64,000 bases of DNA from Candidatus Aminicenantes bacterium (GTDB lineage Bacteria > Acidobacteriota > Aminicenantia > Aminicenantales > Saccharicenantaceae): contig CAVUOW010000003.1 in assembly GCA_963743205.1 (NCBI GenBank), positions 169,497-233,496 of the forward strand. Reading direction: 5' to 3'. Shown here in pieces: positions 16,425 through 64,000 of the stretch; within the stretch, counting starts at the first letter, position 1; each line of letters begins with the position of its first letter. The translations under genes were made by a program, and so were the position numbers. A model generated the notes under the pieces. It ran no database searches. It saw only the letters and a list, made by a program, of their open reading frames with translations, and was not told the origin of the DNA.

Positions 16425-16431
16425 GAAATTA

Positions 16432-23356: not shown

Positions 23357-23360
23357 TTTC

Positions 23361-23500: not shown

Positions 23501-23505
23501 GTTTC

Positions 23506-28723: not shown

Positions 28724-28790
28724 GGTGACACATAACTAAACTCACTTAATTCCCCAATAAATAATTAAGTGTATTTAGTTGTGTGTCACC
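28724..28790. repeat. family-A palindromic element, copy A3 (28-nt arms, 11-nt loop, 3 mismatches in left arm)
   Basis: GGTGACACATAACTAAACTCACTTAATT-ccccaataaat-AATTAAGTGTATTTAGTTGTGTGTCACC, flanked by AATTTC/GAATT. Lies in a divergent intergenic region. Confidence 0.85.
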
Positions 28791-28807
28791 GAATTGGGGA
28801 GGACGCG

Positions 28808-37342: not shown

Positions 37343-37577
37343 AATGGGGTCGGACCACAGCAATAAGAACTAAATCAATGACATAGGTCCATTTATGACG
37401 TTGCTGGAGGCTTAAAATCCGTGTTTTTGACCCCAAAAATGAGACTTGACCTATATGGACAACCATTTTGGCGATCGTTGTTTTTGGCCCAAAAAATGCG
37501 GGACTTAAGCACTCTAGTTCACAAAAAATGGGGTCAAATCACTGATAATGTTCCGATTGCTGTGGTCCGACCCCAAA
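37343..37577. mobile_element. family-B doublet B1 (two inverted ~100-nt arms; REPIN/MITE-like)
   Basis: AATGGGGTCGGACCACAGCAATAAGAACTAAATCAATGAC...GTTTTTGACCCCAAAAA ... GTTTTTGGCCCAAAAAA...GATTGCTGTGGTCCGACCCC. Ends anchored on the 37421 ORF frame. Confidence 0.85.
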
Positions 37578-37686
37578 GCCTTGAGCCGGGAGGCGGTTTT
37601 GGGATAATGTGAGCGGTAAGTGACGCCCCATATTGAGCGGGGCCGGCGCCCCGGGCGGACTCAAGTGGGATGGATGGAGGGAAATC

Positions 37687-39358
37687 ATGAAAAGAACCCG
37701 TAACACCTGGATCGCTCCATTGATCCGGCCAGCGATCATCGTCGCGTTGGCCGTGACACTCGGCATTGCCTGCGGCCCGTCGGCTGAGCCCCCCTCAAAA
37801 AAGGCGGCGGCGACGGCGAAGACGGTCGAGGCCGTTTTCCCTCTCGAGGAGGCGACGATCGCCGGTCTTCAGGAGATGATGACCTCGGGAAAGTCGACTT
37901 CGGAGCAGCTCGTCAAACTTTACTTCGAGCGCATCGATAAGGTCGACCAGGGTGGCTCGGGGCTTAATGCCGTGATCCAAAAGAACCCCGACGCCCTGGC
38001 CATCGCCCGCGAGCTCGACAAGGAGCGCAAGGAGAAGGGGCCGCGCGGACCGCTCCACGGCGTTCCCGTCCTGATCAAAGACAACATCGACACGGCCGAT
38101 CAGATGGAGACGACGGCGGGTTCGCTCGCCCTGCTCGGCTCCAAGCCGGCCAAGGATGCGTTCATCGTCAAGCGCCTGCGGGAGGCGGGGGCCGTCATCC
38201 TCGGCAAGACGAACCTCAGCGAGTGGGCGAATTTCCGTTCGTCGCGCTCGACCAGCGGCTGGAGCGGGCGAGGCGGGCAAACGAAGAACCCGTACGCGCT
38301 CGACCGGAACCCGTCGGGGTCGAGCTCGGGCACGGCGGCGGCCGTGTCGGCGAACCTCGTGACGGTGGGCATCGGAACTGAGACCGACGGTTCGATCGTC
38401 TCGCCGGCGTCGTGCTGCGGGATCGTCGGGCTCAAGCCGACCGTGGGGCTCGTCAGTCGCGCGGGGATCGTTCCGATCGCCCACTCGCAGGACACGGCCG
38501 GGCCGATGGCGCGGACGGTCAGCGACGCGGCGACGCTCCTCGGCGCGATGGCGGGGCCCGACCCGAACGACCCGGCGACGCAGCAGAACGGCGTCCACTT
38601 CTTCCAGGACTATCGGGATTTCCTCAAGCCGGGCGGGTTGCGCGGGGCGCGCATCGGCGTCCTGCGGGCGAAGGCTTTCAATTTCGTGAGCCGGCTCGAC
38701 CCCATTCTGCAGAACGCGATCGACGTCATGAAGGCGGAAGGGGCCGAGGTCATCGATCCCGTCGAATTTCCGACGCTCGGCAAGACGGACGACGCGGAGT
38801 ACGAGGTCCTTCTCTACGAGTTCAAAGCCGATCTCGAGACCTACTTTGCGGCGAGGCCGGGGGCGGCGGTGCGGACGTTGGAGGATCTCATCGCCTTCGA
38901 CCTGAAGAACGCCGACCGTGAGATGCCTTTCTTCGGCCAGGAGATCGTGGAGCAGGCGGCCAAGAAGGGCCCGCTGACCGACAAGGCCTATCTCGAGGCG
39001 CTGGCGAAGTGCCGCGAGCTCATGCGGGAGAAGGGCATCGACGCGGTGCTTGCGGCTCACAAGCTCGACGCGCTCGTCGTCCTGACGAACGGGCCGGCCC
39101 ACATGACGGACCTGGTCAACGGGGACTCGTTCTCGGGCAGCAGCTCGTCGCCGGCGGCGGTCGCAGGATATCCGACGATCACACTGCCGGCGGGGTGGGT
39201 CCTCGGCCTGCCGGTCGGGCGTCTCGCTTATCGGCAAGGCTTGGAGCGAACCGGAGCTGATCCGGCTGGCATTCGGCCTCGAACAAGCGCTGGGGATGCG
39301 GAAAGCTCCGCGCCTGCTCCCGACCTTGGATCTCAAAGGGGTCGGACCACAGCAATAA
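37687..39358 (+). CDS. amidase-signature-family amidase, secreted/lipoprotein-like; frame break near the 3' end
   Basis: ATG 37687 gives MKRTRNTWIAPLIRPAIIVALAVTLGIACG. Motifs VLIKDNIDT and NPSGSSSGTAAAV. After ...GLPVG (about 39214-39222, GTCGGGCGTC) the +1 frame reads VSLIGKAWSEPELIRLAFGLEQALGMRKAPRLLPTLDLKGVGPQQ*. The stop TAA 39356-39358 lies inside element B2. Confidence 0.8.
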
Positions 39359-39586
39359 GAATTAAATCAAATAGTTAGGGCCATTTTTCGGCCCTTAAAA
39401 GGCTTAAAATGGACGTTATTGATGCCAAAAACATAAAAAGAGAATTCCCAGGCGATCGCCTTATAGGCCGGGACGCAGACGAATCGCGCTTTTTGGCCCA
39501 AAAAACGCACGAATTAGGCCAAAATACAGGGGAAAACAATGGCTAAGTATGTGATTATATTTCGATTGCTGTGGTCCGACCCCATT
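39335..39586. mobile_element. family-B doublet B2
   Basis: AAAGGGGTCGGACCACAGCAATAAGAATTAAATCAAATAG ... TTTTTGGCCCAAAAAACGC ... CGATTGCTGTGGTCCGACCCCATT. Ends anchored on ORF 37633..39378 and ATG 39605. Confidence 0.85.
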
Positions 39587-39604
39587 AGAGATCGGAGGTA
39601 AAAT

Positions 39605-41659
39605 ATGAAACGCATTTCCACGGGGATCATCGGGGTTTTGGCAGCGGCGGCCATGTCAATCTCCGCCCTGTCTAGCACCCTATTTGCCTGGGATGCCGCG
39701 GCGGCCCATGATCGAGCGAGCCGGGACGCGTTCGCCAGCGGCCATATGACAAAAACCGGCCCTCCGCCGTTCGCCTTTATCTATGGTGGCAAAGCCTCGT
39801 CCGGCTTTATCGGCAAATGGAGCGTGACTTCGGACGAGAAGACCGAGGGCGCGAAGATCATCCGGACCGTCGTCTATACCGACTCCTCGACCGGCCTCCG
39901 CATCACGGCCGTCTACACGGTCTATCAGGATTTCCCGGCCGCGGAATGGGTCGTGCGCTTCAAGAACACGGGTCGCGCGGATACGCCGATCATCGAGAAT
40001 GTCCAGGCCTGCGCCGTTTCATTCCCGAATTTCGCCGCGTCGGCCTCCGGACCGGTCATGTTGTATCGGGCCAGAGGCAGCGCCGCCGAGCGCTCCGACT
40101 TCGGCCCGATCAACGACACGGTCGCGCCGAAAGCCGAGATCCGCTTCGGACCGACCGCCGGACGCTCCTCCGATACGAACGCGCTGCCCTTCTTCAACAT
40201 CGCGACGCCCGAGCACGGCATCGTCGCCGCCATCGGATGGAGCGGCCGCTGGGAAGCCGTCGTCGGGCGCAAGGGCGCGGACTCGCGTTCGCTCGACCTC
40301 ACGGCCGGCATGGCCGCGACGCGCTTCCGGCTCCGTCCCGGCGAAGAAGTCCGGACGCCATCCGTGGCCCTGCTCTTCTGGAAAAGCCCCGACCGGATGT
40401 CCGGGCACAACCTCTTTCGCCGCTTCGTCCTGGCCCATCACATGCCGCAGGCGAACGGCAAGCCCGTCGCTCTGCCCATCGCCCACGGCGTCGGCTTCGG
40501 CGGTCCGTTCCCGTGCAACGAATACGTCTGCGCCACCGAGAGCTACGCCATCGGCATGATCGAGCGGCTGCATCAGTTCGGCATCGAGCCGGACGCCTGC
40601 TGGATCGACGCCGGCTGGTACGAGAACCCGACCGGCCAATGGTGGTCGGGCGTGGGCACCTGGACGGTCAACACAAAGAATTTCCCGCGCGGCCTCAAGC
40701 CGGTGACGGAGGCGGCCAAGAAGTTCGGCCAGGGCTTCGTCGTCTGGTTCGAGCCCGAGCGCGTCTATGAAGGCACGTGGCTCGATCGCGAGCACAAGGA
40801 CTGGCTGGCCTTTCTGCCCGGGAACCGCAATCGGCTGCTCGATCTCGGCAACCCGAAGGCGCTGGCCTGGCTCATCGGCCATATCTCGAACTTCATCAAG
40901 ACCGAGGGCGTCACGATCTACCGGCAGGATTTCAACTTCGATCCGGCGCCCTTCTGGAAGGCCATGGACGCGCCGGACCGCGTCGGCATCGCCGAGATGA
41001 AGCACATCGAGGGGCTGTACGCGTTCTGGGACGCGCTCCTCGAACAGAATCCCGGGCTCCTCATCGACAATTGCGCGTCGGGCGGGCGGCGCATCGACCT
41101 CGAGACGACGAGCCGCAGCATCCCGCTCTGGCGGACCGACTACCAGTACTACGAGCCGAACGGATACCAGTGCCACACGTACGGGCTCCACTTCTTTGTG
41201 CCGGCGAGCGGCACGGGCAACGGCGACCCGCGCAAATACTGGTTCCGAAGCGCGGCCATGGGCGGGGCGGTCGTCATGGGCTGGGAGCTCGGGGCGGGGT
41301 TCAACGTGCGCGGCGCTATCGAGGACGTGGCCGAGTTCAGGGCGCTGCGCGAATATTTCTACGGCGATTATTATCCGCTCTCGGAATATTCGACGAGCGA
41401 CGATGCCTGGACGGCCCTCCAATGGGACCGGCCGGAGGAAGGGGACGGGATCGTTATCGCGTTCCGGCGTCCGATGGCGCCGCAGCCGTCGATCGAGGTC
41501 AAACTCGGCGGGCTGGACGCGGGTGCGGACTACGAAGTGAGCTTTGAGGATTACGGCGTCGCGGTCGTCAAGAGCGGCCGCGAGCTCTCCGCGGGGCTCA
41601 CGCTCAAGATCCCCGAAGCGCCGGCCTCGCTCCTGGTCAAATACCGGCGGGTGCGGTAA
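39605..41659 (+). CDS. GH36-like glycoside hydrolase (alpha-galactosidase-like), secreted
   Basis: 684 aa with GGAGG RBS and a signal peptide. TIM-barrel-type motifs WIDAGWY, YRQDFNF and DNCASGGRRID resemble the GH36 KxD / SGGGR.D motifs. Confidence 0.6.
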   Translation: MKRISTGIIGVLAAAAMSISALSSTLFAWDAAAAHDRASRDAFASGHMTKTGPPPFAFIYGGKASSGFIGKWSVTSDEKTEGAKIIRTVVYTDSSTGLRITAVYTVYQDFPAAEWVVRFKNTGRADTPIIENVQACAVSFPNFAASASGPVMLYRARGSAAERSDFGPINDTVAPKAEIRFGPTAGRSSDTNALPFFNIATPEHGIVAAIGWSGRWEAVVGRKGADSRSLDLTAGMAATRFRLRPGEEVRTPSVALLFWKSPDRMSGHNLFRRFVLAHHMPQANGKPVALPIAHGVGFGGPFPCNEYVCATESYAIGMIERLHQFGIEPDACWIDAGWYENPTGQWWSGVGTWTVNTKNFPRGLKPVTEAAKKFGQGFVVWFEPERVYEGTWLDREHKDWLAFLPGNRNRLLDLGNPKALAWLIGHISNFIKTEGVTIYRQDFNFDPAPFWKAMDAPDRVGIAEMKHIEGLYAFWDALLEQNPGLLIDNCASGGRRIDLETTSRSIPLWRTDYQYYEPNGYQCHTYGLHFFVPASGTGNGDPRKYWFRSAAMGGAVVMGWELGAGFNVRGAIEDVAEFRALREYFYGDYYPLSEYSTSDDAWTALQWDRPEEGDGIVIAFRRPMAPQPSIEVKLGGLDAGADYEVSFEDYGVAVVKSGRELSAGLTLKIPEAPASLLVKYRRVR

Positions 41660-41679
41660 ATAGGGGAGAAAGGAATAAC

Positions 41680-41914
41680 AATGGGGTCGGACCACAGCAA
41701 TACGAATGAAATCAAATATATATGGCCAAATTTGAACGTCGAAAGTGCCTTAAATCGGCGTTTTTGCCACCAAAAACGAAAATCTGCCAAAACGGCCAGG
41801 CCAATACCGTGTCGTCAATTTTGACCGCAAAAACGCTTAGTTAAGGCAAGAAAAGACGTGAAAACGCTTGTTAATTTACTGATTATATTCAGATTGCTGT
41901 GGTCCGACCCCAAT
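41680..41914. mobile_element. family-B doublet B3
   Basis: CAATGGGGTCGGACCACAGCAATACGAATGAAATCAAATA ... GTTTTTGCCACCAAAAAC ... CAGATTGCTGTGGTCCGACCCCAAT. Begins 20 nt after the GH36 stop and ends 14 nt before the ABC start. Confidence 0.85.
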
Positions 41915-41928
41915 GATAAGGAGCGCGC

Positions 41929-42660: not shown

Positions 42661-44501
42661 GCGCGAGCGGCGCGGGCGGCGCGATCGCGGGCGGGGACCG
42701 TAGCGCGGGCGTGGACCGTAGCGCAGGCGGGGGCGCGAGCGGGCCGGGTCGGGTGGAGCCGGACTCGCGACGGCCGAGCAGGGCCCAGACGGTCCTGACG
42801 GTCATCCGGGCCGGCCTCAGGTCGAACTTCGGGCTGGCGACCCTGAAGCACAGGCTGCTCAAAGAAAAAAAGGACCGCTGGCTCGTGCCGCTCTTCGGGG
42901 TCGCCGCGATCGGCGTCGTCCCGATGTTCTACGGCATCGTCCTGCTCATCGAGAACGTCTATCTCGTACTCAAGCCGATGGGCCAGGAGAGGGCGCTGCT
43001 ATCGTTCGGGATCCTGGCGGGGCAGCTCCTGATCCTGCTCTTCGGGATCTATTACGTCATCGCGGCGTTCTATTTCGCCCGCGACCTCGAGTTCCTCATC
43101 CCTCTGCCTCTCCGGCCGGGCGAGGTCATGGCCAGCAAGTTCGCGGTCATCGTGATCAACGAATATCTGACGGTCGCGGCGCTCGTGCTGCCGGTCGTCG
43201 TTACGGTGGGCGTGCTGGCGCGGGGCGGGGTCGGCTATTGGGTGAACGCGACGCTCGTGTATCTGACGCTGCCGATCATCCCGCTGGCGCTTGTCTCGCT
43301 CGTAGTCGTGGCCATGATGCGCTTCATCAACGTCAGCCGGAAGAAGGACGCGCTCATTCTCGTCGGCAGTCTCGCCCTCATCGGCCTGTCGTTCGCGCTG
43401 CAGATCGGGCTCGGGAAGTCGACGGGGGGCGGAGGCCCGGAGGCGAGCGCCCAGGCCGTGGCCGCTTTCTTCACCTCGTCCGACAGCCTGCTCAACAAGA
43501 TCGGCGCGATCTTCCCGCCGGGGATCTGGGCGACGAAGGCGATCGCCGGGGGATTCAGCGCGGAGGGGCTGGCGAACCTGGCGCTGCTCCTGGGCGTGTC
43601 GGTCGTGTTATTCGCCGGGATGGTCGTGGCGGCCGAGAAGCTCTTCTATCGCGGCGTCATCGGACTTGGCGAGACGACGGGGAAACGGCGGAGGCTGACG
43701 CGCGACGAGATGTCGCGGCGCGTGACGTCGGGGCGCAGGGCGTTCGCGGCGATCTTCGGGCGCGAATGGAAGATCATGAACCGGACGCCGATCTTCCTGC
43801 TCAACGGCATCCTCGTCAGCGTTTTTGTCCCGGCCATCTTCGTCCTGATGGCGACCCTCAACAAGGGAGCGAGGGGAGGGGGAGGCCCGGGCGGAGGCGG
43901 AGGCGATCCCATGGCCCTCCTGACGACCATGATATCGGCCAATCCGCTTGTGGCCATCTTGGGTGCGGCGCTGTTCATGACCATCTGCGGCAGCATCAAC
44001 GGCACCGCGTCGTCGACGTTCTCGCGGGAGGGGGCGCAGTTCTGGATCTCGCGGATGATCCCGGTCGCGCCGAGAGAGCAGGCGGCGGCCAAATTCCTGC
44101 ATTCGTATCTGGTGGCGATGCTGGGCGTCGCGACGGCGTCGGTCGTGGCTGCGGTCTTCCTTCACATGAGGGCGGTGCACCTTGCGCCTGCGGTCGCATT
44201 GTCGCTCGTGGCGGGGGTGCTGCTGACGGCGGTCGGCATGATGATCGATCTCGCGAGGCCGCTTCTCGACTGGACAAACCCGCAGAAGGCGATCAAGCAG
44301 AACCTCAACGTGCTTCTGGCGCTGTTAGCGGACGTCGGCATCCTGACGGCGGTTTTCTTCGGGGCGAAGTCGCTGATCCGGGCCAAGCTCGCGACGAACG
44401 TCGTGCTGGGCGTGGTGTTTGTAGGATTGGGCGCGCTGGCTGCAGCCAGTTACATGGCCCTCCTCAAGTTCGCCGACAAGCGTTATCCAGAGATTGAGTA
44501 A
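42657..44501 (+). CDS. large polytopic permease partner of the ABC ATPase (putative ABC-exporter membrane protein)
   Basis: ATG 42657 overlaps the ATPase stop (ATGA). 614 aa with a G/A/S/R-rich N-terminus followed by many hydrophobic helices. Stop TAA 44499-44501 overlaps the first bases of element B4. Confidence 0.6.
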   Translation: MSASGAGGAIAGGDRSAGVDRSAGGGASGPGRVEPDSRRPSRAQTVLTVIRAGLRSNFGLATLKHRLLKEKKDRWLVPLFGVAAIGVVPMFYGIVLLIENVYLVLKPMGQERALLSFGILAGQLLILLFGIYYVIAAFYFARDLEFLIPLPLRPGEVMASKFAVIVINEYLTVAALVLPVVVTVGVLARGGVGYWVNATLVYLTLPIIPLALVSLVVVAMMRFINVSRKKDALILVGSLALIGLSFALQIGLGKSTGGGGPEASAQAVAAFFTSSDSLLNKIGAIFPPGIWATKAIAGGFSAEGLANLALLLGVSVVLFAGMVVAAEKLFYRGVIGLGETTGKRRRLTRDEMSRRVTSGRRAFAAIFGREWKIMNRTPIFLLNGILVSVFVPAIFVLMATLNKGARGGGGPGGGGGDPMALLTTMISANPLVAILGAALFMTICGSINGTASSTFSREGAQFWISRMIPVAPREQAAAKFLHSYLVAMLGVATASVVAAVFLHMRAVHLAPAVALSLVAGVLLTAVGMMIDLARPLLDWTNPQKAIKQNLNVLLALLADVGILTAVFFGAKSLIRAKLATNVVLGVVFVGLGALAAASYMALLKFADKRYPEIE

Positions 44502-44737
44502 TGGGGTCGGACCACAGGAATCAGAACAATATCAGTAAGTTAGGTCATCTCTTGAGGCGCTTTTGGCCTTATCTACGGTGTTTTTGCCATCAAAAACGAG
44601 AACTGACGGGGATTAGTGCGGCTACTAATCGAGACGTCGTTTTTAGCATCGAAAATGGCCGAGTTAAGCCAAATAGGCCGCCCAATTTGAGGCTAAGTTG
44701 CTGATTATTATTTAATCTGCTGTGGTCCGACCCCATT
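44500..44737. mobile_element. family-B doublet B4
   Basis: (T)AATGGGGTCGGACCACAGGAATCAGAAC ... GTTTTTGCCATCAAAAAC ... TAATCTGCTGTGGTCCGACCCCATT. Followed by a 12-nt direct repeat ACCCCATTGACC x2. Confidence 0.85.
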
Positions 44738-44757
44738 GACCCAACCCCATTGACCAA

Positions 44758-45498: not shown

Positions 45499-45540
45499 CG
45501 GTGTCTCCTGCGGACAGGTTTACAGGGCTCTCATTATAAG

Positions 45541-45640
45541 CGTTTTTGGCCCCAAAAAGCCCGGAGATAAGCCTTTTATAACGCAAAAAACGGGCTTAAG
45601 TTACAGATTTATATGAGATCTGCTGTGGTCCGACCCCATT
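45541..45640 (-). repeat. family-B singlet arm B5
   Basis: CGTTTTTGGCCCCAAAAAGC...GGGCTTAAG...GATCTGCTGTGGTCCGACCCCATT. Single arm only. The terminus overlaps the DsrE-like stop (ACT TAA TGGGGTC on the minus strand). Confidence 0.8.
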
Positions 45641-46106: not shown

Positions 46107-46245
46107 TGCTTATCCCTCCAACTTCAATCTCATTTCGGATATTCTTGAAGCGCAGCATTGTGTCAACGCCCACTTCTGGTGATCGCTTCTCAGGATCCAC
46201 TTGCTGTCCTAAGACCCCATCCTGCTCGCCGCGCCCGGCCGGCCG

Positions 46246-47886: not shown

Positions 47887-47978
47887 GGGTATGACTCTCT
47901 ATCTGAGCATAAGCGTGAGCATAAGGGCCGATTCGGAAGACAAATGCTAGCATTATTAGGGCATTTCTTCAAATTCCC

Positions 47979-49031
47979 ATTGGGGTCGGACCACAGCTAT
48001 CGGAACGTTTTCAATAGCTTAAGTCCGATTTTGAGATCTTTTAGGGCTTAAAGTCGGCGTTTTTGGCCCCAAAAACGAAAATCGGATTGCCCTTGGTCCG
48101 TCTGAGCACGGTCGAATCGTCTGCGATGCCGCCTCGCACGATCTCAGCCGCGCCGATCTTGTTTCCCAATTCGGCTTGAAAACCTCGAAGGTACTTTTCG
48201 CTGCCGACGGCGACGCTCTCGGTCCAGATCGGGTCGCGCTCGATCTGTCCCTTGCGGATCGCGATGTCGATCCACTCGGATCGCCGGGCCAGGTGAGCGC
48301 GGATATCAGGCGCGCCCGTCAGCTCCACGAGCTTGCTCGAATCGACCAGGAGCCCGCGGCGTCGCTCGCGAGGGACGGCGATCTCGCGCACGAGCTCGTG
48401 ATACCCGCAATAGGCCCATTCGCGAGGGTGGGCGACGACGCCGGCCCTGACCATATTCATGTCGACGTAGGTGAGGCATCGCGCGAGTTGGGCCCCGTCC
48501 TCGACGGCGGTGCCGTGATAGCGGTCCTCCCAGAACGCGCCGCGACGCTCTTTCCTCGCGTTGTAACCCTGAGCGATGCGGGACTCGATGAGCTGAAGCG
48601 CGCTCGGCAAGGCCGTGGCCTGCGCTCGCGCTCGGCTGGCGAGAACCATCGCGAGCAGATGGATGTGATTCGACGTGATCATGAAGTTCAAGATGATCAG
48701 GCCGTAGCGGATCCTCGCTTGGTGCGCCCAGTGGAGCCAGATCAGCTTGTCGCGGCGAAACTTGAGCAGGAATTCCTTCTTGTGACACCGATGCGTGATA
48801 TGCCAGATCCGGCCGGGAAGGAAATTCCGGTTTGCTCGAGGCATCGCGTTTCCGCCGTCCTGCTCGTCCTGTCTCCGAAGAAGTAGACGCATCAAGGGAC
48901 CGTATCTTCTCACGAGACCCAGGAGCAAGACGGATGTTTTTGACCCAAAAAACAATGGTTTTAAGCCTTTTTTATGCCCAAAAGAGTGGCTAACTTATTG
49001 ATTATTATCGGATCTGCTGTGGTCCGACCCC
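47979..49031 (-). mobile_element. family-B full-length copy B6: two inverted arms flanking a Y1/HUH (RAYT/IS200-like) transposase gene
   Basis: Left arm ATTGGGGTCGGACCACAGCTATCGGAAC...GGGCTTAAAGTCGGCGTTTTTGGCCCCAAAAACG. Right arm GTTTTTGACCCAAAAAAC...GGATCTGCTGTGGTCCGACCCC. Both are homologous to the arms of the short copies. Ends anchored on ORFs 47680..48051 and 49005..49787. Confidence 0.85.
48041..48844 (-). CDS. REP-associated tyrosine transposase-like protein (Y1 HUH transposase, IS200-like domain)
   Basis: ATG 48844 gives MPRANRNFLPGRIWHITHRCHKKEFLL. HUH motif SNHIHLL. Catalytic-Tyr helix YVDMNMVRAGVVAHPREWAY (compare the YI..NPVRAGLV of RAYTs). 267 aa, intact. The 3' end reads into the left-arm hairpin. 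Confidence 0.8.
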   Translation of the reverse strand: MPRANRNFLPGRIWHITHRCHKKEFLLKFRRDKLIWLHWAHQARIRYGLIILNFMITSNHIHLLAMVLASRARAQATALPSALQLIESRIAQGYNARKERRGAFWEDRYHGTAVEDGAQLARCLTYVDMNMVRAGVVAHPREWAYCGYHELVREIAVPRERRRGLLVDSSKLVELTGAPDIRAHLARRSEWIDIAIRKGQIERDPIWTESVAVGSEKYLRGFQAELGNKIGAAEIVRGGIADDSTVLRRTKGNPIFVFGAKNADFKP

Positions 49032-49043
49032 ACTTATGCTAAG

Positions 49044-49751: not shown

Positions 49752-49792
49752 GCTTGCGTCGCGCCCGCGGGTTATAATCACCGTCAACGGGA

Positions 49793-51134
49793 ATGTCCCA
49801 ACCGCATCGAATTCGACCGATCCGCTTCATCAAGGACGAGTACGTCCGAGCTTATCGCGGATTGCCGCGGCGCGCCTGGATCCTGTTCGCCGTCAACCTG
49901 GTCAACTCGTCCGGCTCGATGGTCATCTTTTTCCTGGCGCTCTACTTGACGCGCAAGCTCGGGCTCACGACCGCGCGGGCGGGTCAGGCGCTGAGCCTCT
50001 ACGGCGTGGGCTCGCTCGCGGGGGCCTTCGCGGGGGGGTGGCTCTCCGACCACGTCGGGTCGATCACGGTCCAAAAGGTGAGCCTGGCCGTGTGCGGCGT
50101 CACGCTCATCGTTCTGGGACAGGTCCGCACGGTGGCCGGGATCCTGCCGTTGCTCTTCGGATTGGCGCTGTTCGCGGGCATGCTCTATCCGGCCAACGCC
50201 ACGTCGATGTCGAAGATCTGCCCGGCCGAGCTTCAGGTCAAGGGATTCGCGCTCAATCGGCTGGCGAATAATCTCGGGGCGACGATCGGTCCGGCCGTCG
50301 GAGGCGTGCTGGCGCTCAGCGATTATCGGCTGCTTTTCTGGGCGGACGGCCTGACGTCGCTCGCGGCGGCGGCGGTGTTCGCGGTGCTGTGGAAGGGTGC
50401 GAGGGCCGGCAGAGAGACGCGGAGCCGCGAGCCGAAGTGCGCGGGGGCCGCACAAGCTGTCGGAGCGGAGCAGGGCCGGGTGGATACGACAGAGACCGAG
50501 CGGCGACCGGCGTCTGGCCCGGCGATCGGGGGCCGGCCAAGGCCCAGCTCGCCCTGGCGCGACGTTCCTTTTCTGCTGTTGATGCTCATCTGGCTCGTCT
50601 GGTGCTCGGTCTTCGTCCAACTGCTGACGACGTTCCCCATCTACATGCGCAATGTTTATGGGCTCGCGGAAAACCGGATCGGCCAACTCTTCGCCGTCAA
50701 CACGATCATGATCGTCACCCTCGAGATGATCCTGATGGAAAGGATCCGGAAGCATGCGCAGGCTCGTGCGATCAACATATCTATCGTGCTGCTTGGCGAT
50801 CGGATTCGGGATGATGCCGCTGGGGCGGGGGTTCGCGTTCGGCGCGATCACGGTGGCGATATGGACATTCGGCGAGATGCTGAGCATGCCGCTCGTGACC
50901 GCCCTGATCGCGGGGCGCGCCGACGACTCGAACCGCGGCCGGTATATGGGACTGCTCAGCTTCTCGTTCTCGCTGGCGTTCATCATCGCTCCGGCGGGCG
51001 GCACCGCGATCTACGAGCAGTGGGGCCCTGATGCGGTCTGGTACGTCTGCTGCGGACTCTGCCTCCTCTTGGCGGCAGCCTTTTCGGCCCTGAGACCGCG
51101 TCTCTATGGGGTCGGACCACAGCAGATTGAATAA
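49793..51134 (+). CDS. MFS transporter, frame break
   Basis: 12-TM-like hydrophobic profile. After ...TLEMILMERIRKHAQ the sensible sequence continues in the 50754..51134 frame (...AIGFGMMPLGRGFAFGAITVAIWTFGEMLSMPLVTALIAGRA). Break within 50755-50795. The C-terminus ...LYGVGPQQIE* is read from element B7. Confidence 0.75.
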
Positions 51135-51359
51135 AAATCAATAACTTAGGCCGAAATTTGAGGCTCAAATAGCCCCTAATTGAAGCTTTTTGACATCAAA
51201 AATAGAGAACGCCTTGGCGCCGTCTCCCGAGCCAAGACTATTGCCTGATGCGAGTCCTTTTGCTTTTGCCCATGAAAATGCCGTTTTTAAGCCAAAAAAG
51301 AGTTGAAAATCTTGGTTAACTTATTGATATTGTTCTGATAGCTGTGGTCCGACCCCATT
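51105..51359. mobile_element. family-B doublet B7
   Basis: TATGGGGTCGGACCACAGCAGATTGAATAAAAATCAATAACTTAGGCC ... CTGATAGCTGTGGTCCGACCCCATT. Very similar to B9. Confidence 0.85.
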
Positions 51360-51562
51360 GGGAACCAACTGCGCCGGCTATTCGGAACCCATATCCAGGC
51401 CTAGCCCCGGCCTCGAACCTGCCCCACGCGCTTTCCCAGGCCCCTTCCCGGCCCGTTTCTACGTGGCCCGCATCCGAAACAAGAATCTCGTTACGCCACG
51501 TGATGCCGATGTCAACTTGGGGCCAATCGATCAGATTCTCTGGCCTAATCGTCGCCTGGAGA

Positions 51563-51669
51563 TAGGTTTCTATTTTTGCCCCTGAAAATACGGGTTTTAA
51601 GCCAAAAAAGAGCCGAAAAGTAGGGCTAACTTGTTGATATTTTTCGGATAGCTGTGGTCCGACCCCATT
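51563..51669 (-). repeat. family-B singlet arm B8
   Basis: TTTTTGCCCCTGAAAATACGGGTTTTAAGCCAAAAAAG...CGGATAGCTGTGGTCCGACCCCATT. The terminus overlaps the stop of 51668..54463 (ATC TAA TGGGGTC on the minus strand). Confidence 0.8.
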
Positions 51670-54463: not shown

Positions 54464-54586
54464 CAGAAGCTCCTGATCACCGATCGGCTGCGGTCGAATA
54501 TCTTTGCCGAAGGCCCGCGGGCCGGATTTTCTCGAAAGCGCTTAATTCATACTTAAATACGAATCAGCCGCCCGAAATGTTGCCTC

Positions 54587-54840
54587 AATGGGGTCGGACC
54601 ACAGCAGATTAAATAAAAATCAATAACTTAGGCCTCAATTTAGGGCTCTAATACCCCTTAACTTGAGCTTTTTGACCCCAAAAATAGAAAACACCCCTGC
54701 ACCTCCCGCAAGCCATAACCATCGCGACGAAGTGAGTCCTTTGTTTTTGCCCATGAAAATGCCGTATTTAAGCCAAAAACAGACCAAAAATATCGGCTAA
54801 CTTATTGATATTATTCGGTTGGCTGTGGTCCGACCCCATT
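54587..54840. mobile_element. family-B doublet B9
   Basis: CAATGGGGTCGGACCACAGCAGATTAAATAAAAATCAATAACTTAGGCC ... TTTTTGACCCCAAAAAT ... GGTTGGCTGTGGTCCGACCCCATT. Confidence 0.85.
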
Positions 54841-54868
54841 GTATTTGACCCCAGACAGAGTCTCGGAT

Positions 54869-55882
54869 ATGATTCTAGCGCACATGGATACACGCTTCGG
54901 AAAGTTCGTCCACGATTTCCCCGGGCGCCTCGCCATGCCCCTCTGCGTCTATTCCGGGCTCGAGATCACCGGCGAATCGATCGAGGACATGATCAGCGTC
55001 CCCGGCTCGCAGTTCAAGGCCATCATGGCCCTCCAGGACCGCTATCGGACGCCCGTCCTTCTCACGGCCATCGACACGACCGCCGAAGCCGAAGCCTACG
55101 GCTGCGAGGTCAAGTTCTCGGCGCGCGAGGCCCCGTCGATCGTCGGGCGCCTCGTCACGACCGCCGCCGACGTCGCCGCCCTCGCCGACCCCGTGCCCGG
55201 CGATGCCCGGACGCGCGTGCCCATCGAAACGGCCTGGCGCCTAACCGCCGAAGTAGGGGAGAGCGTCCCCGTTCTCGGCACGATGCTCGGCCCGTTCGCG
55301 CTCGCCACCCGCCTCTTCGGCCTCAACGAGACCATCGCCGCGACCACCGCCGAACCCGAGACGATCGAGACCCTCCTCGACAACGTGACCGGATTCCTCT
55401 GCCGCTACGCGCTCGAGTTCCGCGAGACGGGCGCCTGGGGCATCGTCGTGGCCGAGGGGGCCGCCGGCCGGCTCTCACCCGAAGGCCTAGCCCGCTTCTC
55501 GACGCACTTCGTCAAGCGGATCATCAAGGCCGTCGAGACCCCGGACTTCTCCGTCGTCGTCCACAACTGCCGTGCCGCGATCGACCACCTGGACGCGATC
55601 ATGGCCTCCGGCGCCTCCATGTATCATTTCGGGGCGGGGATGGACATCGTCGCGGCGCTCGCCAAAGCCGGCCCCGAGATCGTTCTCAGCGGGAACCTCG
55701 ACGCCAAGAAGATCTTCCTCAAAGGCACGCCCCAGATCGCCGGGGACGCGACGCGCGCGCTCCTCGAGGCGACCCGCCCCTACAAGAATTTCGTCATCTC
55801 CTCCGGCTGCGACATCCCGCCGGGCGCCACGCTGGCGAACCTCAACGCCTTCTTCCGCGCCGTCTCCGACTTCAACAAGTAA
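54869..55882 (+). CDS. uroporphyrinogen-decarboxylase (URO-D) family protein / methyltransferase-like
   Basis: Start moved to ATG 54869, because the 54839 TTG lies in element B9. TIM-barrel URO-D-like sequence (...AEAEAYGCEVKF..., ...VVHNC..., ...ISSGCDIPPG). Confidence 0.7.
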   Translation: MILAHMDTRFGKFVHDFPGRLAMPLCVYSGLEITGESIEDMISVPGSQFKAIMALQDRYRTPVLLTAIDTTAEAEAYGCEVKFSAREAPSIVGRLVTTAADVAALADPVPGDARTRVPIETAWRLTAEVGESVPVLGTMLGPFALATRLFGLNETIAATTAEPETIETLLDNVTGFLCRYALEFRETGAWGIVVAEGAAGRLSPEGLARFSTHFVKRIIKAVETPDFSVVVHNCRAAIDHLDAIMASGASMYHFGAGMDIVAALAKAGPEIVLSGNLDAKKIFLKGTPQIAGDATRALLEATRPYKNFVISSGCDIPPGATLANLNAFFRAVSDFNK

Positions 55883-55885
55883 GTC

Positions 55886-55987
55886 TTCATTTTTGCCCCC
55901 AAAAACCACCGTTTTAAGGCCTAGAACCCCCTCGAAATGGACCTAAACTATTGATTTGTTTTCGAATTCCTGTGGTCCGACCCCATT
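55886..55987 (-). repeat. family-B singlet arm B10
   Basis: CATTTTTGCCCCCAAAAACCACCGTTTTAAGGCC...CGAATTCCTGTGGTCCGACCCCATT. Begins 3-4 nt after the URO-D stop. Confidence 0.8.
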
Positions 55988-56081
55988 GCCCTCTTGACAA
56001 CCGCCCAGCTTAATTCCTATTATCAAACCAACAATCCCCATTTCAGTCCGGTCCCGGGCCGCTCCCGCCGGGTGAGGACAG

Positions 56082-58363: not shown

Positions 58364-58448
58364 GGGTCTGACGTGCAGTTCTGCGCCCTCTTTGGCTAAA
58401 GAGCGCAGAGTGTAGGCCTGACCCCGTCTGATTCTTATTCTGTGGGCT

Positions 58449-60452
58449 TCAATCCCCGATCGCGACGGCGTAGAGATACCAGGCGGCGTGGGGGAGCCAC
58501 TGCTCGGCCCAGCGCCAATCGTCGTCCTTGCCCGTCTGGGCGTAGCGCAGGCCGAAGTCGATGCCCGTATCGTCCGTGTAGCCGCCCGTGATGCCGTTGC
58601 AGATGCCGCCCGGCGCGTTCGTGTACTCGTAGGATTCGAAGAAGATGTAGGGGATGTTGTTGCGGCCGTGGCCGTGGAGCATGCAGGCGTCGTAGGGGTT
58701 GAGGCCGAGGATCCAGTTGAGCTGATCGCGGCCGAAGGCGCGGAGGGAGGAGGCGAGGGCGCGATCGGAGTCGCTGGGGCTCTGGGCGAAGGCGAGGGCC
58801 GCGAGGCGGGCGGCGGCGGCCATCGACCCGAGCCGGGCGTTCTCGCCCTGCCACCAGGGCGCGGTCTCGGTGTCGTGGGGGAAGAAGAAGCTCGTGCGGC
58901 GGGTCGACGCGCCGTCCTTCGACTGGACGAGCTGACGGCTGTAGCCGAAGGGGTTCGCGACCTCGGCGGTCACGGCGAGCTCGAAAGCGAGGGACTTGCG
59001 GACGGCGTCGAGGGCCTTCGCGCGGCCCGCCTCGTCGGCGATCTCGGAGTAGAGGAGGAGGCTGACGACGGGCATGCCGGCGTCGACGGGGTGGAAGAAG
59101 GGGCGATCGCCGCCTTCGCCGTCGGCGCGCCAGTAATTCTCGTAGACGGTAGTCGCTCTTCCATGAAACCAATCTCGCCTCGAGCGACGCGGCCCGCTTG
59201 TCCGCGGCCATCTCTGTAAACCGGCTTCTTCGTCGTCCTGATAAAGCTCCGTCGCCGCGATGAGCGCGCAATAATCGTCGAGGATGTTCTCCTTGCCGTC
59301 GTTCGTGAAGAGGAGGTTGTTCTTCTCGAGGAAGGCGAAGGCGTCCTCGGCGGCCTTGAGATAGTCCGCGGCCTTGAAATCGCCCTCGCCCCGGCTCACG
59401 CCGTAGCCAGGGGTCCCGGGCGCGCCATCCGCCCCGCCGCGCGCCGCGGCCATGGCCAGCGCGGCGATGCAGAGGCCGGCGCCCTCCCGATATCCGGCCT
59501 CGTAGGCCGCGTCGCCGGCGATCTTCTCCCGGCCGTAGTCGCGGAACTTGTCCTTCGTCTCCGGCGTCAGGATGATGTGGCGCTCGGCCTTCGGGGTGAT
59601 CTGGCGGTCCTCGGGCTTCTTCTCCGGGCCGCGCCCCGAGACGGTGATGTAGAACGACCCCTTCGGGTTCTTGCTCCGGACGAGGTAATCGGCGCCGAAC
59701 AGGGCCTCGTCGAGGAGCCGCTTCTGATACTGCTTGAAGTTGGGGTCGCCGCGCCGCTCGATCTCCCGGAGGGTCTGGAAGAGGCTCCAGGCCGTGAGCG
59801 AGACCTGCTGGGGATTGAAATAGGACGAGTAGGAAAGGTGCGAGAGGTGCTTGCCGTAGTCCCCGGTGGCGTCGAACCAGCCGCCGTGCATGTCGACGGT
59901 GCCGGCCTTCCCCTCGAAGGTCAGCTTGCGGTCGGCCTTGTCCCAGAGGCCGGATGAGCGCTGGCCCTTGAAGTAATAGATGACGTCGGAAAGCGTGTTC
60001 CGGGTGAGCGCGTTCTTCTGGACGAGGATGGGGTGGGAGCGGAGGGTAGCGCTGCCGCAGTAGCGCAGCCGCAGCTGCCAGCCGCGCCTGCCTTCGACGC
60101 GCATTCGATGATGTAGGTGCCCTCCTTTGTCGACTGCGCTCCAATCGATCGTCCAGAAATCCCAATCCTTCCACTTGGCGACCGGCCCGACGTGGACCGG
60201 GGTCCCGGTCAGGACGACCTCGCCGCCGGGATAGCTCTTGACGGCGAAAGCCGCGAACGCGTCGCCGGCATGACCTTGGATGACGGCCTTCTTCGCGCCC
60301 GTCGGCTCATACCCGACCTGGTTGGTCAGGATGCGGGCCGGTTGCGACCTGGGGCTTGGCATTCTATCTGACTGCCGGGGACCACACGCCCGATGACGAT
60401 AAGGGAAAGCCCAATGGCGACAATCGAAATGGCAGCCGTCTTCTTGAGACAT
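58449..60452 (-). pseudogene. GH9-like glycoside hydrolase (CelD_N Ig-like domain + alpha/alpha-barrel), multiple frame breaks
   Basis: ATG 60452 has GAGGAGG upstream. The signal/TM sequence KTAAISIVAIGLSLIVIGRVV is readable only in another frame. ILTNQVGYEPTGAKKAVIQG (CelD_N-like), HGGWFDATGDYGKH and NGITGG...WAEQWLPHAAWYLYAV. Further frame hops near 60090-60125 (EGTYIIECA) and 59130-59230 (TTKKPVY / EMAADKRAASLEARLVSWKSDY). Confidence 0.55.
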
Positions 60453-60562
60453 CAGGACCTCCTCGGGGATCTGGGAAGAGGGGTCAACACGTGTTTGTTT
60501 GTGCCGTTTTTGACGATAAGCACAAAAAACAGGTTTGACCCCTTCTTGCTCTTCCCTTGGCT

Positions 60563-62018
60563 TTATTTTTTGGCTTCGAATAGCGTCCAGGGGTAAGCCT
60601 TCATGTCCTTCAGGTACGGCTTCTGCCAAGCGTACTCTGGGTGCTTGGCCAGGAAATCCGCCGCTATGAAATCACGTCCGCACGGGTGACCCATGTGGGC
60701 CCACATCTTCATCTCTTTGACCAGCGCGCTCGACGTCACTTTCCCCTGGACCGACCCTGCCGGAGAGAACGGCGCCCAGTTGAACTCGGGCGTCCCTTTG
60801 GGATCCTCGTCGACGTGGCCGCAGAGCACGTTGCTGTTGAATCCCGTCTTGCCGGTGGCCAAGTCGACGTGGTCGGCCTCGAAGAGCTTCCCGTCCTCGA
60901 CGTCGATGTAGCCCTTGTATTCCTCCATCAGCTGTTCCCAGCGCGCCTTCCTCACCAGCACGGACTGCGTCTTGTCGTTCGGATTGAATGTCGTCTCCTC
61001 GGCGATGACCTTTTCGTCGCCGGGGAAGTTCGATCCGATGAAATAGCCGTCCGTCGTCCGCCACAGCCTCTGGTTCTTCAGCCCCAGCTCGTACTTGGCG
61101 ATCTCGCCCGTCTTCGTGTCGCCGACGAGCCAATCGTTGGCGTAGGCGCCGTTGTTGTCGGCGGTCATGATGCGGACGAAGTCGTCGATCGACGCCGCGT
61201 ACTGGGCCGCTTTCCTCGCCCGCATGAACTCGGGCGTGCCCTCCTCGCGGAAGCCCTTGAACGTGCCCATGGTCGTTTCCGTGTAGACGAGGCCCGCGCT
61301 GTTCATGACGAAGTCGTCGCCGCTGTGGATGGCCCCAGGCATGCAGTCCATCAGGATCCGATGACCTGCCGCCGGTACGATGTCGGCGATGACATTCCAG
61401 CGCGACCCGATGATGTAATCGACCCAGTTGTTGTGGCCGATGACGATGCCGCCGCCCTCGGTCCAGCTCCCCGTGGCGATGAAGGCGCTGCAGTAGCCCG
61501 GCGCCTTGTTGTCGCCGGCGCCTTTCTTGGCCATCCCATCGAGGTAGGGGACATAGTACCAGGCGAGCTCGATCCAGCCGTTGAGGGCCGTGATATCGAT
61601 GCGGTCGTATTTCGTCCGTGGGAGCCGCGCGCGGAGCCCCGCGGCGATGCCCTCGATCTCCTCTTGGTATTCCGCCTCGAGCTTCGGCCAGAACATCCGC
61701 TCGGCAGCGCCCCTGAAGAACGCCCAGTCGCGTTTCGTCGAGCCCTTCGAGAAAGTGGGCGAGCGCCTTCAGCAGGTCGTCGATTTCTGGCGCGAGCAGC
61801 CACCCATGCTGGAAGCCGATCTCCCGCGGCGTCCCTTCGAGATGAACCTTGATCCAGCCGTTGGTGTCGACTCGCGTCGCCTTGGCGAGTTCCGTCGGAG
61901 CCGCGGCGGGCGCGGCTGCCTTCTTCGAGCAGGCAGGGGAGAGGAAGATGAGAACCAGGGTAGACAGGGCAATCAGCCCGGTGAGCACTTTCGTTCGGGC
62001 GCGGGGCCTTAAGTTCAT
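60563..62018 (-). CDS. Ntn-hydrolase-like secreted protein (C45 peptidase / phospholipase-B-like), frame break
   Basis: ATG 62018 gives MNLRPRARTKVLTGLIALSTLVLIFLSPACS (lipobox-like). ...GFQHGWLLAPEIDDLLKALAHFLEG then continues as STKRDWAFFRGAAERMFWPKLEAEYQ in the 377-aa ORF frame (break ~61735-61750). Candidate nucleophile context GYCSAFIATG. Confidence 0.45.
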
Positions 62019-62107
62019 GGTCGCCTCCGATCGAACTGGGCGCCTTTTAGGAGCGCGGGCGCCAGGCGGAGGATATAACGGACTTGACTCCAATTCAAGC
62101 GCGGGTG

Positions 62108-62213
62108 ATTTGGCGTTTATAGCCCCAAAAACACCATAATTAGGCCAATTTAGGCCATTGAAACGACCTTAAGTCATTGATTTTTTAAAGAGAAGCTGTG
62201 GTCCGACCCCATT
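62108..62213 (-). repeat. family-B singlet arm B11
   Basis: GCGTTTATAGCCCCAAAAACACC...GGCCAATTTAGGCC...AAGCTGTGGTCCGACCCCATT, followed by a perfect 15-nt tandem duplication GACCCCATTACTCAG x2 (62205-62234). Confidence 0.8.
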
Positions 62214-62226
62214 ACTCAGGACCCCA

Positions 62227-64000
62227 TTACTCAGCTTTGGAGTAGCTGTAGTATTCGCGGGCGTAGTAGCCGTCCTGCTCGACGAGATCGACACCGTTCA
62301 GGATGACACCAAGGCATTTCAGCTTGTGGGCGTCGAGCTTCTGCTTGGCCTGCTTGATGGCCTGGAATCGGAGTTTGCCCGCCCCTCGCGACCAGGATGA
62401 TCGCGTCGGCCATCGGACCCATGGCCAGCGCATCGGATACCGCCAAGAGCGGCGGCGTATCGAATAGGATGAAATCGAAGTTGCGCTTGAGATACCCGAC
62501 GAGGCTATCCATCTTCTCGGAAGTCAGAAGCTCGATCGGATTGGCCGGCAGGGGACCGCTCGTGATCAAATGCAAGTTCGGGATATCGGTAGGTTTCACG
62601 ACCTCGGCGGCTTCCATATTCGAGCTGAGATATCGGCTCAAGCCCGGTCCGTCGCCGCTATTTGCGCCGAAGATCTTTGCCTGTTTGGGTTTTCGAAGGT
62701 CGGAATCCACGATAACGACACGCTTGCCCGATTCTGCCAAGGTTATTGCCATGTTGGAAACCGTGGAGGACTTGCCTTCCCGGGCAAGCGGGCTCGTGAA
62801 GAGGATAGTCTTGATCCGGCCCGGAGGCGAAGATACGAGCAGGGTCGTCCGGATGGACCGGTAGCTCTCGGCCTGGATCGATTGGGGTTCCCTGGCGGCG
62901 ATGAGCTCGATCTTGCCCGCCCCGATTTCGTTTTCTGCCGGATTCTCCGCTTGCCCAGTCTGGCGTGATCAATTGGACGGATCGCTGTCCTTCTTCCGTC
63001 CGCCTGCTATCTGGCTTTTTTCTGCTCACTCTTTCCGCGAATCATGGAGATCATCTTTGCGAATTCCGCAATCGGGCCCTTCGACTTGAATTCGGCTTCG
63101 AACGCCGGGACCGTTCCAAGCGTCGGGACGCCGATGGAATTCGTGACGTCTTTTGAGGTCTTGACGGTGTTGTTCAGGAATTCCAAGCCCTAAGGCAAGC
63201 CCGATCCCTCCTGCCAGGCCAAAAATAAGCCCATCAGGACGTTCTTCCGCTTATTCGGCGATGCCGGGCGCAGGGGATAGTCCGCCTTGTCGACGATCCA
63301 GACGTTCAAAGCTTCCAGGCCCTTGAGCCGCGAGGATACGTCGGTTTCGCTCTGCCTCTTCGACAGGGATTCGAGCAATGCCTTCTGATTGTCGAGCTCG
63401 ATCCTCAGGCTGTTGATAGACGACCGAGTTGCTGTTGGCCTTGTAGGCCTCGTTCTTCTGGGTATTCAGAAGACGCTGAAGGGACTGTTCCTTGTTCAGG
63501 GCGTTTTGATAGTCGTTGTAGGCGTTCCGGATAAGGTTCTGGGTTTCGTTCTTGAGAGCTTCGGTGGCCGCGTCGAGCTCGATTTCAGGCGCTGCATGGC
63601 TCGGGATATTCCGGCCGGACGGTCGCCAGCCGGGTCGCGTATTCACGGCTCAGAGTGATGTATTGCTCCCTTAAGCGCTGGATGAGACTTCCTTCGGGGG
63701 CGTTGGGGATCTCCCCGAGGGGCGCCGCTCTTGAGCTGGTTATAAACATTGAGCTTGCTGACCCGGTCGAGAGTCGCGTCCGTCAGCGCCTTATTGATTT
63801 CCCCTATCCTGCTGACGGTCGGGGCCTCCGCAGCCGTCAGGGGCAGGATATCCTTTTCCGAGCCGTACTTGTTGAGCTCCTTTTCTTTCTCCTCGATTCT
63901 GGTCCTGAGCTCGGCGATCTGGGTGTTCAGGAATTCCGTGGCCTGCTCCGACGCGGCGTATCTCTTGCGGACGATCATGTCGATATAGCCATCGAAGAGG
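62227..64000 (-). pseudogene. Wzc/EpsB-type polysaccharide co-polymerase + BY tyrosine kinase (5' end outside window), several frame breaks
   Basis: Read across frames on the minus strand: ...RKRYAASEQATEFLNTQIAELRTRIEEKEKELNKY... (coiled-coil PCP region), then ...IELIAAREPQSIQAESYRSIRTTLL...SPLAREGKSSTVSNMAITLAESGKRVVIVDSDLRKP...ILFDTPPLL... The Tyr-rich tail is EQDGYYAREYYSYSKAE*. Breaks occur near 62390 and at several points between 62850 and 63720. Confidence 0.7.

Follow-up and report, generated by a model that had tools for sequence, protein, structure and literature searches.

A stretch of 64,000 nucleotides from a Candidatus Aminicenantes bacterium (contig CAVUOW010000003.1 of assembly GCA_963743205.1, forward-strand positions 169,497 to 233,496), called here the window, carries between 37 and 62 kb a family of inverted-repeat arms that punctuate the gene order, and among them a ~1.05-kb unit in which two such arms enclose a gene. 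This unit encodes a Y1/HUH tyrosine transposase of the RAYT/TIRYT type, and the arm family represents its ends. The region is very probably a TIRtron, that is, a single-copy Y1 transposase gene with two ~105-nt inverted ends, accompanied by non-autonomous copies of those ends that are the counterpart of REPINs and REP singlets. A preliminary description of the window had listed the segment 47979-49031 as a long doublet copy of the repeat. It does have the two inverted arms, but it also encodes the cognate Y1 transposase, which had been overlooked and which explains the family.

The arms are recognised by the 16-mer GGGGTCGGACCACAGC, of which a motif scan tolerating up to two mismatches finds 18 copies in the window, against 0.05 expected by chance. 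Sixteen of the 18 are perfect, and the other two (44503, plus strand, and 55984, minus strand) differ at the last base only. All copies are confined to positions 37,346-62,210 and fall exactly where the preliminary description had placed its 18 arms. They are grouped in six inverted doublets of 235-255 nt, four singlets and the unit of ~1,057 bp, which gives 18 arms in 25 kb. A profile (nhmmer) built on these ~105-nt arms recovers all of them (18/18) as matches of ~100-107 nt with E-values of 1e-20 to 1e-25. Between 1 and 37 kb it matches nothing, even when E is raised to 50 and the filters are switched off, in agreement with the absence of arms described there. The elements are the following:

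47978-49034, minus strand: complete unit (TIRtron) of 1,057 bp, with the transposase gene between two ~105-nt inverted arms
47978-48084, plus strand: left (gene-3') arm of the TIRtron, nhmmer E 3.5e-25, overlapping the end of the open reading frame
48932-49034, minus strand: right (gene-5') arm of the TIRtron, nhmmer E 1.4e-23
37343-37577: doublet E1 (arms 37343-37446, plus, and 37472-37576, minus), between the divergent Fer2/MoCoBD operon (minus) and amidase gene (plus)
39335-39586: doublet E2 (arms 39335-39436, plus, and 39483-39586, minus), between the amidase and GH36 genes; the amidase reading frame reaches 44 nt into the left arm, to 39378, and GH36 starts 19 nt past the right arm
41679-41914: doublet E3 (arms 41679-41785, plus, and 41810-41914, minus), between GH36 and the ABC ATPase gene
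44500-44738: doublet E4 (arms 44500-44604, plus, and 44633-44738, minus), between the convergent permease and TerC genes
45539-45640, minus strand: singlet S1, directly at the dsrE stop (TAA 45639-45641) in sense orientation, upstream of TerC
51105-51360: doublet E6 (arms 51105-51210, plus, and 51259-51360, minus), downstream of the MFS gene
51565-51669, minus strand: singlet S2, starting at the DUF5916 stop (TAA 51668-51670)
54586-54841: doublet E7 (arms 54586-54690, plus, and 54737-54841, minus), between the divergent DUF5916 and URO-D genes
55882-55988, minus strand: singlet S3, with the URO-D stop (55882) on one side and the TPR gene on the other; the last base of its 16-mer is G
62108-62213, minus strand: singlet S4, between the Wzc-like AAA_31 gene (minus) and the next minus-strand gene

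When 31 arms are aligned (the 18 of the window and 13 from other genomes), they share an invariant GGGGTC.GACC.CAG core, followed by a looser ATCAATAAnTTAG box, a GGCTTAA box and, 80-95 nt in, a T-run/A-run hairpin, so that the internal boxes of the preliminary description reappear in the consensus. Its statement that every arm starts with (T/C)AAT has to be corrected, since this tetramer precedes the core in 11 of the 18 arms and AAT in 12. The arms have 40-45% GC and the six short doublets 42-45%, compared with 60-67% in their flanks, and each of these doublets can be folded into a long, imperfect hairpin (49-86 cross-arm pairs, z = -6 to -10), as expected from their earlier portrayal as AT-rich palindromes. 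Single arms fold weakly and inconsistently, and the conserved structure that RNAalifold finds inside a single arm amounts to two invariant pairs. True partners within a doublet pair no better than swapped ones (-47.3 vs -46.9 kcal/mol), which gives no sign of arm co-evolution. A hairpin in the terminus itself, T-GGGGT-CGG-ACC(A/T)C-A, was considered. Some variants fit it (A to T gives G-T; GGCGGGTCGGACCCGCC in L132), but it was dropped, as the outer pairs are lost in many ACCAAGC or GCCACG termini. A search of the whole window against Rfam at gathering thresholds gave no match, and a literature search for the arm motif returned unrelated primer sequences only.

The transposase gene lies at 48041-48844 on the minus strand. 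Its product is a 267-aa protein starting MPRANR, which corresponds to the product of the open reading frame from Met-38 onward (codons 48844 to 48044), with a predicted active site formed by the HUH motif H60-I-H62 and the catalytic Tyr, Y126. The protein matches the NCBIfam model REP_Tyr_transpos (REP-associated tyrosine transposase) with E 1.9e-17 and, weakly, Pfam Y1_Tnp (E 6e-4). Among 26 aligned homologues, the most distant at 47% identity, both the HUH motif (TSNHIH) and the Tyr motif (Y-V/I-D-M/L-N-M-V-R-A) are invariant. Comparison of folds was needed because a PDB search with the single sequence gave no match and one with a profile gave only a weak match to 4ER8 (E 0.062). The AlphaFold model (pLDDT 84) has as its top solved match this same structure, E. 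coli TnpA-REP with a REP hairpin (E 3.4e-6, TM 0.71 over the target), followed by the TnpA of IS608 and ISDra2. The conserved C-terminal ~120 residues are also predicted to be folded. More than 6,000 database protein clusters are homologous to the transposase, some of them named RayT by their source, and the exact sequence of the window protein has no database record. In a plasmid collection, 14 weak protein matches (<35% identity) and no DNA match were found, a result that is uninformative for an uncultured phylum.

The gene is the sole copy within the window and is maintained as a coding sequence. Its identity to a 93% orthologue is 0.97, 0.96 and 0.885 at the three codon positions, which indicates purifying selection. 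The last ~15 codons (NPIFVFGAKNADFKP, 48041-48084) are encoded by the T-run/A-run hairpin and the GGCTTAA box of the left arm, so that this stretch is protein and element end at once. The tail motif VFGxKNxDLxP is retained in homologues down to ~60% identity, and this conservation could act at the level of DNA rather than protein. Faint tblastn echoes of the transposase tail are also seen in the arms at 37408-37440 and 41748-41783.

The association between this protein and this terminus extends well beyond the window. A metagenome scan with the transposase alignment yielded 80 loci at 42-92% identity, most of them at 42-52%, and 48 of these have enough flanking sequence to be read. Inverted GGGTCGG(A/G)CC termini (GGGTCGGACC, up to one mismatch) stand on both sides of the gene in 35 of the 48, on one side in nine and on neither side in four. 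The outer ends of the 35 two-sided loci span a median of 939 bp, and the T-run/A-run hairpin is present in 49 of their 70 arms. The bases after the core vary with the protein: ACCACAG in the window and in its 93% and 73% relatives, ACCTCAG at 55% and GCCTCAG at 49%; many others have ACCAAGC or GCCACG. The transposase clade is thus systematically paired with the same terminal motif. In most distant loci the two flanking ends are the only copies within up to 10 kb, while the Aminicenantes relatives (the window, L121, L125, L128 and L136) have 7-18 arms and no other homologue locus examined is comparably dense. The high local density pointed out in the preliminary description is therefore real, and it is specific to these relatives. 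A TIRtron is also seen in another phylum, at L041 4820-5765 (Kiritimatiellae metagenome-assembled genome, JAQUJC010000056.1), where one end has the exact GGGGTCGGACCACAGC and the protein is 37% identical to that of the window.

At least eight genomes labelled Candidatus Aminicenantes or Aminicenantia contain matches over the full arm length (E down to 5e-22), mostly on stretches without the transposase gene, which means that the family is dispersed in those genomes. A scan of a genome collection with the exact 16-mer was swamped by chance matches in GC-rich actinobacteria, and it serves as a taxonomic lead towards Aminicenantes, not as a source of copy numbers. The transposase gene itself is a fixed, vertically inherited resident, as in L121-L124 (93% identity), L125 (73%) and L126 (66%) alike its orthologue is found between tag and sqr-dsrC-dsrE. 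Over 12 kb that include the repeats, L121 and the window are ~92% identical, and nine of the ten arms common to both find their best partner in the window orthologue (85-96% identity). Four independent contigs of this relative, from JGI and Logan samples, have the same arms at the same sites. In L125 the arms also occupy the same intergenic sites, and all ten retain the 16-mer with at most one change, while their interiors have diverged too far to be assigned to orthologues. Singlet S1 has orthologous arms in both L121 and L125. L126 differs at 13134-14792, where dsrE is directly followed by the amidase gene, and the repeat-bounded GH36, ABC-permease and TerC units found at 39.6-45.5 kb of the window, and also in L125, are absent. 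Mobilisation of genes by the arms was considered for this block, but nothing ties the difference to the arms.

Divergence is distributed very unevenly along the arms. Within the window, 286 of the 288 bases of the 18 16-mers are identical, whereas the interiors are 58% identical on average. The preliminary description was right in its core view of REP/MITE-type inverted repeats whose conserved termini imply protein recognition. Between the window and L121, identity is 0.897 in arm interiors, near that of intergenic DNA outside them (0.888) and of third codon positions. For the 16-mers it is 0.963, with six differences in 160 sites against 10.3% in the interiors (P = 0.002). The terminus is therefore under constraint, and the interiors drift at about the neutral rate. 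The recognisably recent copies in the window are E6, E7 and S2 only. E6 and E7 are copies of a whole unit, with 81-84% identity per arm and ~80% over ~260 nt, which shows that a whole doublet can be duplicated, and S2 is 77-79% identical to the right arms of both.

One site differs between L121 and the window. At L121 483-587 an intact arm stands at the stop of the GH9 gene (…GAG TAA T GGGGTCGG…), and at the corresponding place the window has an unrelated 78-nt spacer (58371-58449) with a GC-rich hairpin of its own (GGGGTCAG…CAGACCCC around CTGCGCTCTTT…AAAGAGGGCGCAG). Within this spacer CCACAGAATAAGAAT resembles arm positions 11-26 by eye, but nhmmer finds no decayed arm there at E<=50 with filters off. 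Loss, replacement and independent gain of the arm are indistinguishable at this site. Signs of mobility are seen in the copying of the E6/E7 unit, in the arm present only in L121 at the GH9 stop, and in the arm loci without a gene in at least eight Aminicenantes genomes.

From 37 to 62 kb the elements do lie between genes, at almost all boundaries of transcription units, as described earlier. The order given in the preliminary description (amidase, GH36, ABC pair, TerC, dsrE-tusE-sqr, tag-MFS, DUF5916, URO-D, HTH-TPR to C45, Wzc) has Pfam support for most genes, and a GH9 glycoside hydrolase at 58449-60629 can be added. The elements occupy tandem, convergent and divergent intergenic regions alike, so that no single regulatory role fits. 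Several of them are in intimate contact with coding sequences. The permease gene (44499-44501), dsrE, DUF5916 and, in L121, GH9 all have as their stop codon the TAA of TAAT-GGGG, and in L125 the dsrE stop is TGA, immediately followed by CAAT-GGGG. The GH36 gene, an ABC gene and g16 start only 15-19 nt past an arm, which makes it probable that some arms are transcribed. Promoter- or terminator-like sites are not enriched at the arms (22 found vs 17.7 expected), and no intrinsic-terminator signature was seen in them.

Two further observations concern position and strand. Among seven sigma-70-like promoter matches between 37 and 56.5 kb, three (37581-37608, 54845-54873 and 55994-56023) begin 4-6 nt beyond an arm's outer end and are directed away from the arm, into the amidase, URO-D and TPR genes. 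Insertion could have been tolerated only just upstream of promoters, or the arrangement could be due to chance. All four singlets lie on the minus strand, and the rising cumulative GC skew of the window suggests that the plus strand is the leading one. In L121, which is in reverse orientation, the five singlets, including the extra one, are also all on one strand. At such small numbers, replication and gene orientation are inseparable as causes of this bias.

RAYT-like genes that lie between long terminal inverted repeats (TIRs) have been described under the names TIRtrons and TIRYTs (Di Nocera et al. 2013, PMC3733652). The TIRs of many, although not all, TIRYTs begin GGGGWSAS, and copies of TIRs form moderately abundant families of singles, dimers and clusters (PMC3733652). 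Most TIRYTs have been placed in subclass 2.1 of TnpA-Y1 (Quentin et al. 2018, PMC6006769), which is Group 1 of Bertels et al. (2017, PMC5581495). Class 2 with its subclass 2.1 is marked by the Tyr motif Y---NP, the HUH motif NH[VYF]H, a W[EQ] motif and a C-terminal helix-turn-helix (HTH)-like domain (Bac_DnaA_C, HTH_23 or HTH_28) (PMC6006769). The window system resembles TIRtrons in having a Y1 protein longer than classical RAYTs, long inverted TIRs unrelated to GTAG REPs, a 3' TIR that overlaps the end of the gene, and copies present as singles, dimers and clusters. Its GGGGTCGG start agrees with GGGGWSAS at seven of eight positions, position 7 being G instead of A. In a phmmer comparison with the sequences of Additional file 5 of PMC3733652, the top matches of the transposase are TIRYTs of S. 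maltophilia, D. audaxviator and K. versatilis (sml_4509, sml_1152, dau_2153 and aba_2776; E 6.5e-22 to 5e-18), and RAYTs follow with 6e-9 (Pseudomonas pfs_3939) and 0.004 (E. coli b228). The NHIH and WE of the window protein fit the class 2 HUH and W[EQ] motifs loosely. The system differs from published TIRtrons in its ~105-nt arms with a conserved inner GGCTTAA box and T-run/A-run hairpin, and in the local pile-up of 18 arms per 25 kb in Aminicenantes, a lineage outside the coverage of PMC3733652, PMC6006769 and PMC5581495.

The resemblance to REPIN-RAYT systems of Pseudomonas, E. coli and Neisseria lies in a single-copy, vertically inherited Y1 gene at a fixed locus, flanked by its own repeats, and in non-autonomous, hairpin-forming inverted doublets and singlets that are intergenic, long-persisting and marked by a conserved 16-mer. 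REPs are palindromes of 20-40 nt with a GT[AG]G foot and REPINs measure ~100 nt, and their authors state the REPIN association for RAYT Groups 2 and 3 only (Bertels & Rainey 2011, PMC3116915; bioRxiv 10.1101/2021.07.10.451892). Classical RAYT/REPIN systems comprise tens to hundreds of copies spread over a genome; in several Aminicenantes genomes, dispersed arms are seen on contigs that lack the gene. The window arms differ in being ~105 nt long, in starting YAAT-GGGGTCGG, and in having neither a GTAG foot nor a conserved terminal hairpin. E. coli TnpA-REP (YafM; 4ER8; PMC3479197) is the best structural match of the model, and the HUH and Tyr residues of both align, but it is 15% identical, has 165 aa and acts on a GTAG-footed hairpin, whereas the window protein has ~120 extra C-terminal residues and another DNA terminus. 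The IS200/IS605 family, which also has miniature derivatives associated with palindromes, shares the catalytic fold and subterminal hairpins, and a single-strand 'peel and paste' chemistry is presumed. IS200 TnpA proteins have ~150 aa and a Y---Q motif, are multi-copy and often accompanied by tnpB, and the ends of their elements are not inverted repeats. Neither this size and motif nor the multi-copy state and non-inverted ends are seen in the window system, and tnpB was found in none of the loci that were read. The novelty implied by the preliminary description must therefore be narrowed, since this kind of system has already been described as RAYT/REPIN and, more precisely, as TIRYT/TIRtrons with TIR repeat families (PMC3733652, PMC6006769). 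The arm sequence family itself is not mentioned in the literature searched, and it appears to be new to that extent, as do its presence and local expansion in Aminicenantes and the ~105-nt arm architecture of a very large protein clade.

By analogy with E. coli TnpA-REP (PMC3479197) and IS200/IS605 TnpA, the arms would be mobilised by the transposase on single-stranded DNA. In the proposed model, the conserved terminus (YAAT)GGGGTCGGACCACAGC, perhaps in combination with the inner T-run/A-run hairpin, is bound by the enzyme at single-stranded sites that are probably exposed at replication forks. The enzyme would then cut and rejoin DNA at the terminus, which would lead to rare copying or moving of arms and doublets into intergenic DNA, mostly near the gene. 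Copies that arrive right after stop codons or upstream of promoters would be tolerated and then inherited for a long time.

Several observations weigh against the interpretation of the region as a TIRtron with its dispersed ends. The transposase stays under the curated cutoffs of both family models (63.5 vs 80 bits in NCBIfam, 20.4 vs 23 in Pfam), and its Tyr motif, Y(V/I)D(M/L)NM, has Met in place of the Pro of Y---NP, invariably within the clade. No stable, covariation-supported hairpin was found in the terminus or in the single arm. Most copies are old, with interiors diverged by ~40%, which bears on whether the system is active at present. The polymorphism at the GH9 stop is a replacement and not a clean insertion, and no clean pair of empty and filled sites fixes the boundary of the element or a target duplication. 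We know of no biochemistry on any TIRYT, and cleavage and transfer at these ends are an extrapolation. Pfam (E<=0.01) reports only Y1_Tnp in the protein and no HTH-type C-terminal domain of subclass 2.1. Because of this and because the Tyr motif ends in NM, the enzyme is filed, on its sequence, as a TIRYT-like relative and not as a proven member of subclass 2.1.

It could be argued that the arms are host elements selected site by site, such as structures that act at transcript ends or in mRNA stability, boundary elements, or places where a nucleoid protein or the domesticated enzyme binds, with transposition as a distant origin only. This explanation, which overlaps with the TIRtron interpretation, is unlikely, although it deserves appreciable weight. 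The positions shared with relatives whose arm interiors are saturated, yet whose 16-mers are kept, speak in its favour, as do the arms that begin exactly at stop codons in sense orientation, the probable transcription of some of them, and a transposase gene that is present once in the window, syntenic and under purifying selection. The arms in the two divergent promoter regions (E1 and E7) do not suit a role as terminators alone, and there is neither the signature nor the enrichment that it would call for. Moreover, interiors evolve as other intergenic DNA does, pairing within doublets is no better than between them, and most distant homologues have their two flanking ends without extra copies. 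It has also been considered that the enzyme and its arms, as a pair, serve the host at transcription-unit boundaries, for example in the processing of single-stranded DNA at forks or in the shaping of transcript ends. The 16-mer would in that case be kept by selection, and the pile-up would reflect cis-preferential action. This proposal is tentative and its truth rather doubtful. That positions and the 16-mer have been kept for so long speaks for a host role, whereas neutral interiors and mixed contexts argue against a simple one.

The remaining explanations fare worse. An ordinary MITE family could be moved by a DDE transposase encoded elsewhere, for instance with an AT or TA target duplication, and the presence of the Y1 gene between two arms would then be accidental. 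Long terminal inverted repeats and a size of 235-255 nt are MITE-like, and the AAT...ATT flanks formally allow an AT duplication at an AATT target. The conserved flank is nevertheless inverted (YAAT/ATTR) and not direct, so that palindromic AT alone could be a duplication; no DDE gene is associated with any locus read; and the terminal motif flanks distant Y1 homologues at a constant distance in the independent two-sided loci from many environments, and in the Kiritimatiellae genome as well, which makes an accidental arrangement very improbable. An integron-like cassette array, with the palindromes as attC-type sites, would explain why imperfect palindromes part nearly every gene block and why TerC, the ABC pair and the GH36 block are absent from L126. 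This is scarcely credible for genes that lie on both strands and are syntenic and housekeeping-type in relatives, separated by elements of 235-255 nt with a GGGGTCGG core instead of attC R and L boxes. No integrase was seen among the genes examined, and the only enzyme tied to the repeats is the Y1 HUH protein. Finally, the window is probably metagenomic and repeats can mislead assemblers, but an assembly or chimera artefact, which the preliminary description had named as a possible refutation, is extremely unlikely. The interiors of the copies are too different to represent collapsed or duplicated reads, and the same arrangement recurs in the independent JGI and Logan assemblies of the 92%-identical relative and in the relative with the 73%-identical transposase.

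The window has two other kinds of repeat. A second palindromic family, unrelated to the arms, consists of three inverted doublets (16317-16431, 23354-23504 and 28716-28793) with arms of 29-37 nt, CGGTGACACACAACTAAATACACTTAATT. Their complementarity is 89-100% (97-100% in most pairs), the spacers measure 46, 84 and 11 nt, and each doublet forms an AT-rich island. At 10633-11286 there are tandem units of 15 nt, GATATTCGGATTGAC, in two blocks, which are probably a coding repeat of the pentapeptide type.

TIRYTs are a large group, and the clade of the window enzyme alone comprises more than 6,000 protein clusters in public data. The locus provides a well-defined substrate, with a conserved terminus of 16-20 nt, a conserved inner hairpin box and a unit of ~940 bp. 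The arms are worth annotating as the ends of mobile elements, lest the 3' ends of genes that run into them, such as that of the amidase gene, be misread. The relatives of the window form a natural series in which the gene stays fixed while the copies of its ends grow from 2 to 18 within a few tens of kb, and this series could show whether long-lived repeat populations like those of REPINs exist outside the proteobacterial RAYT groups.

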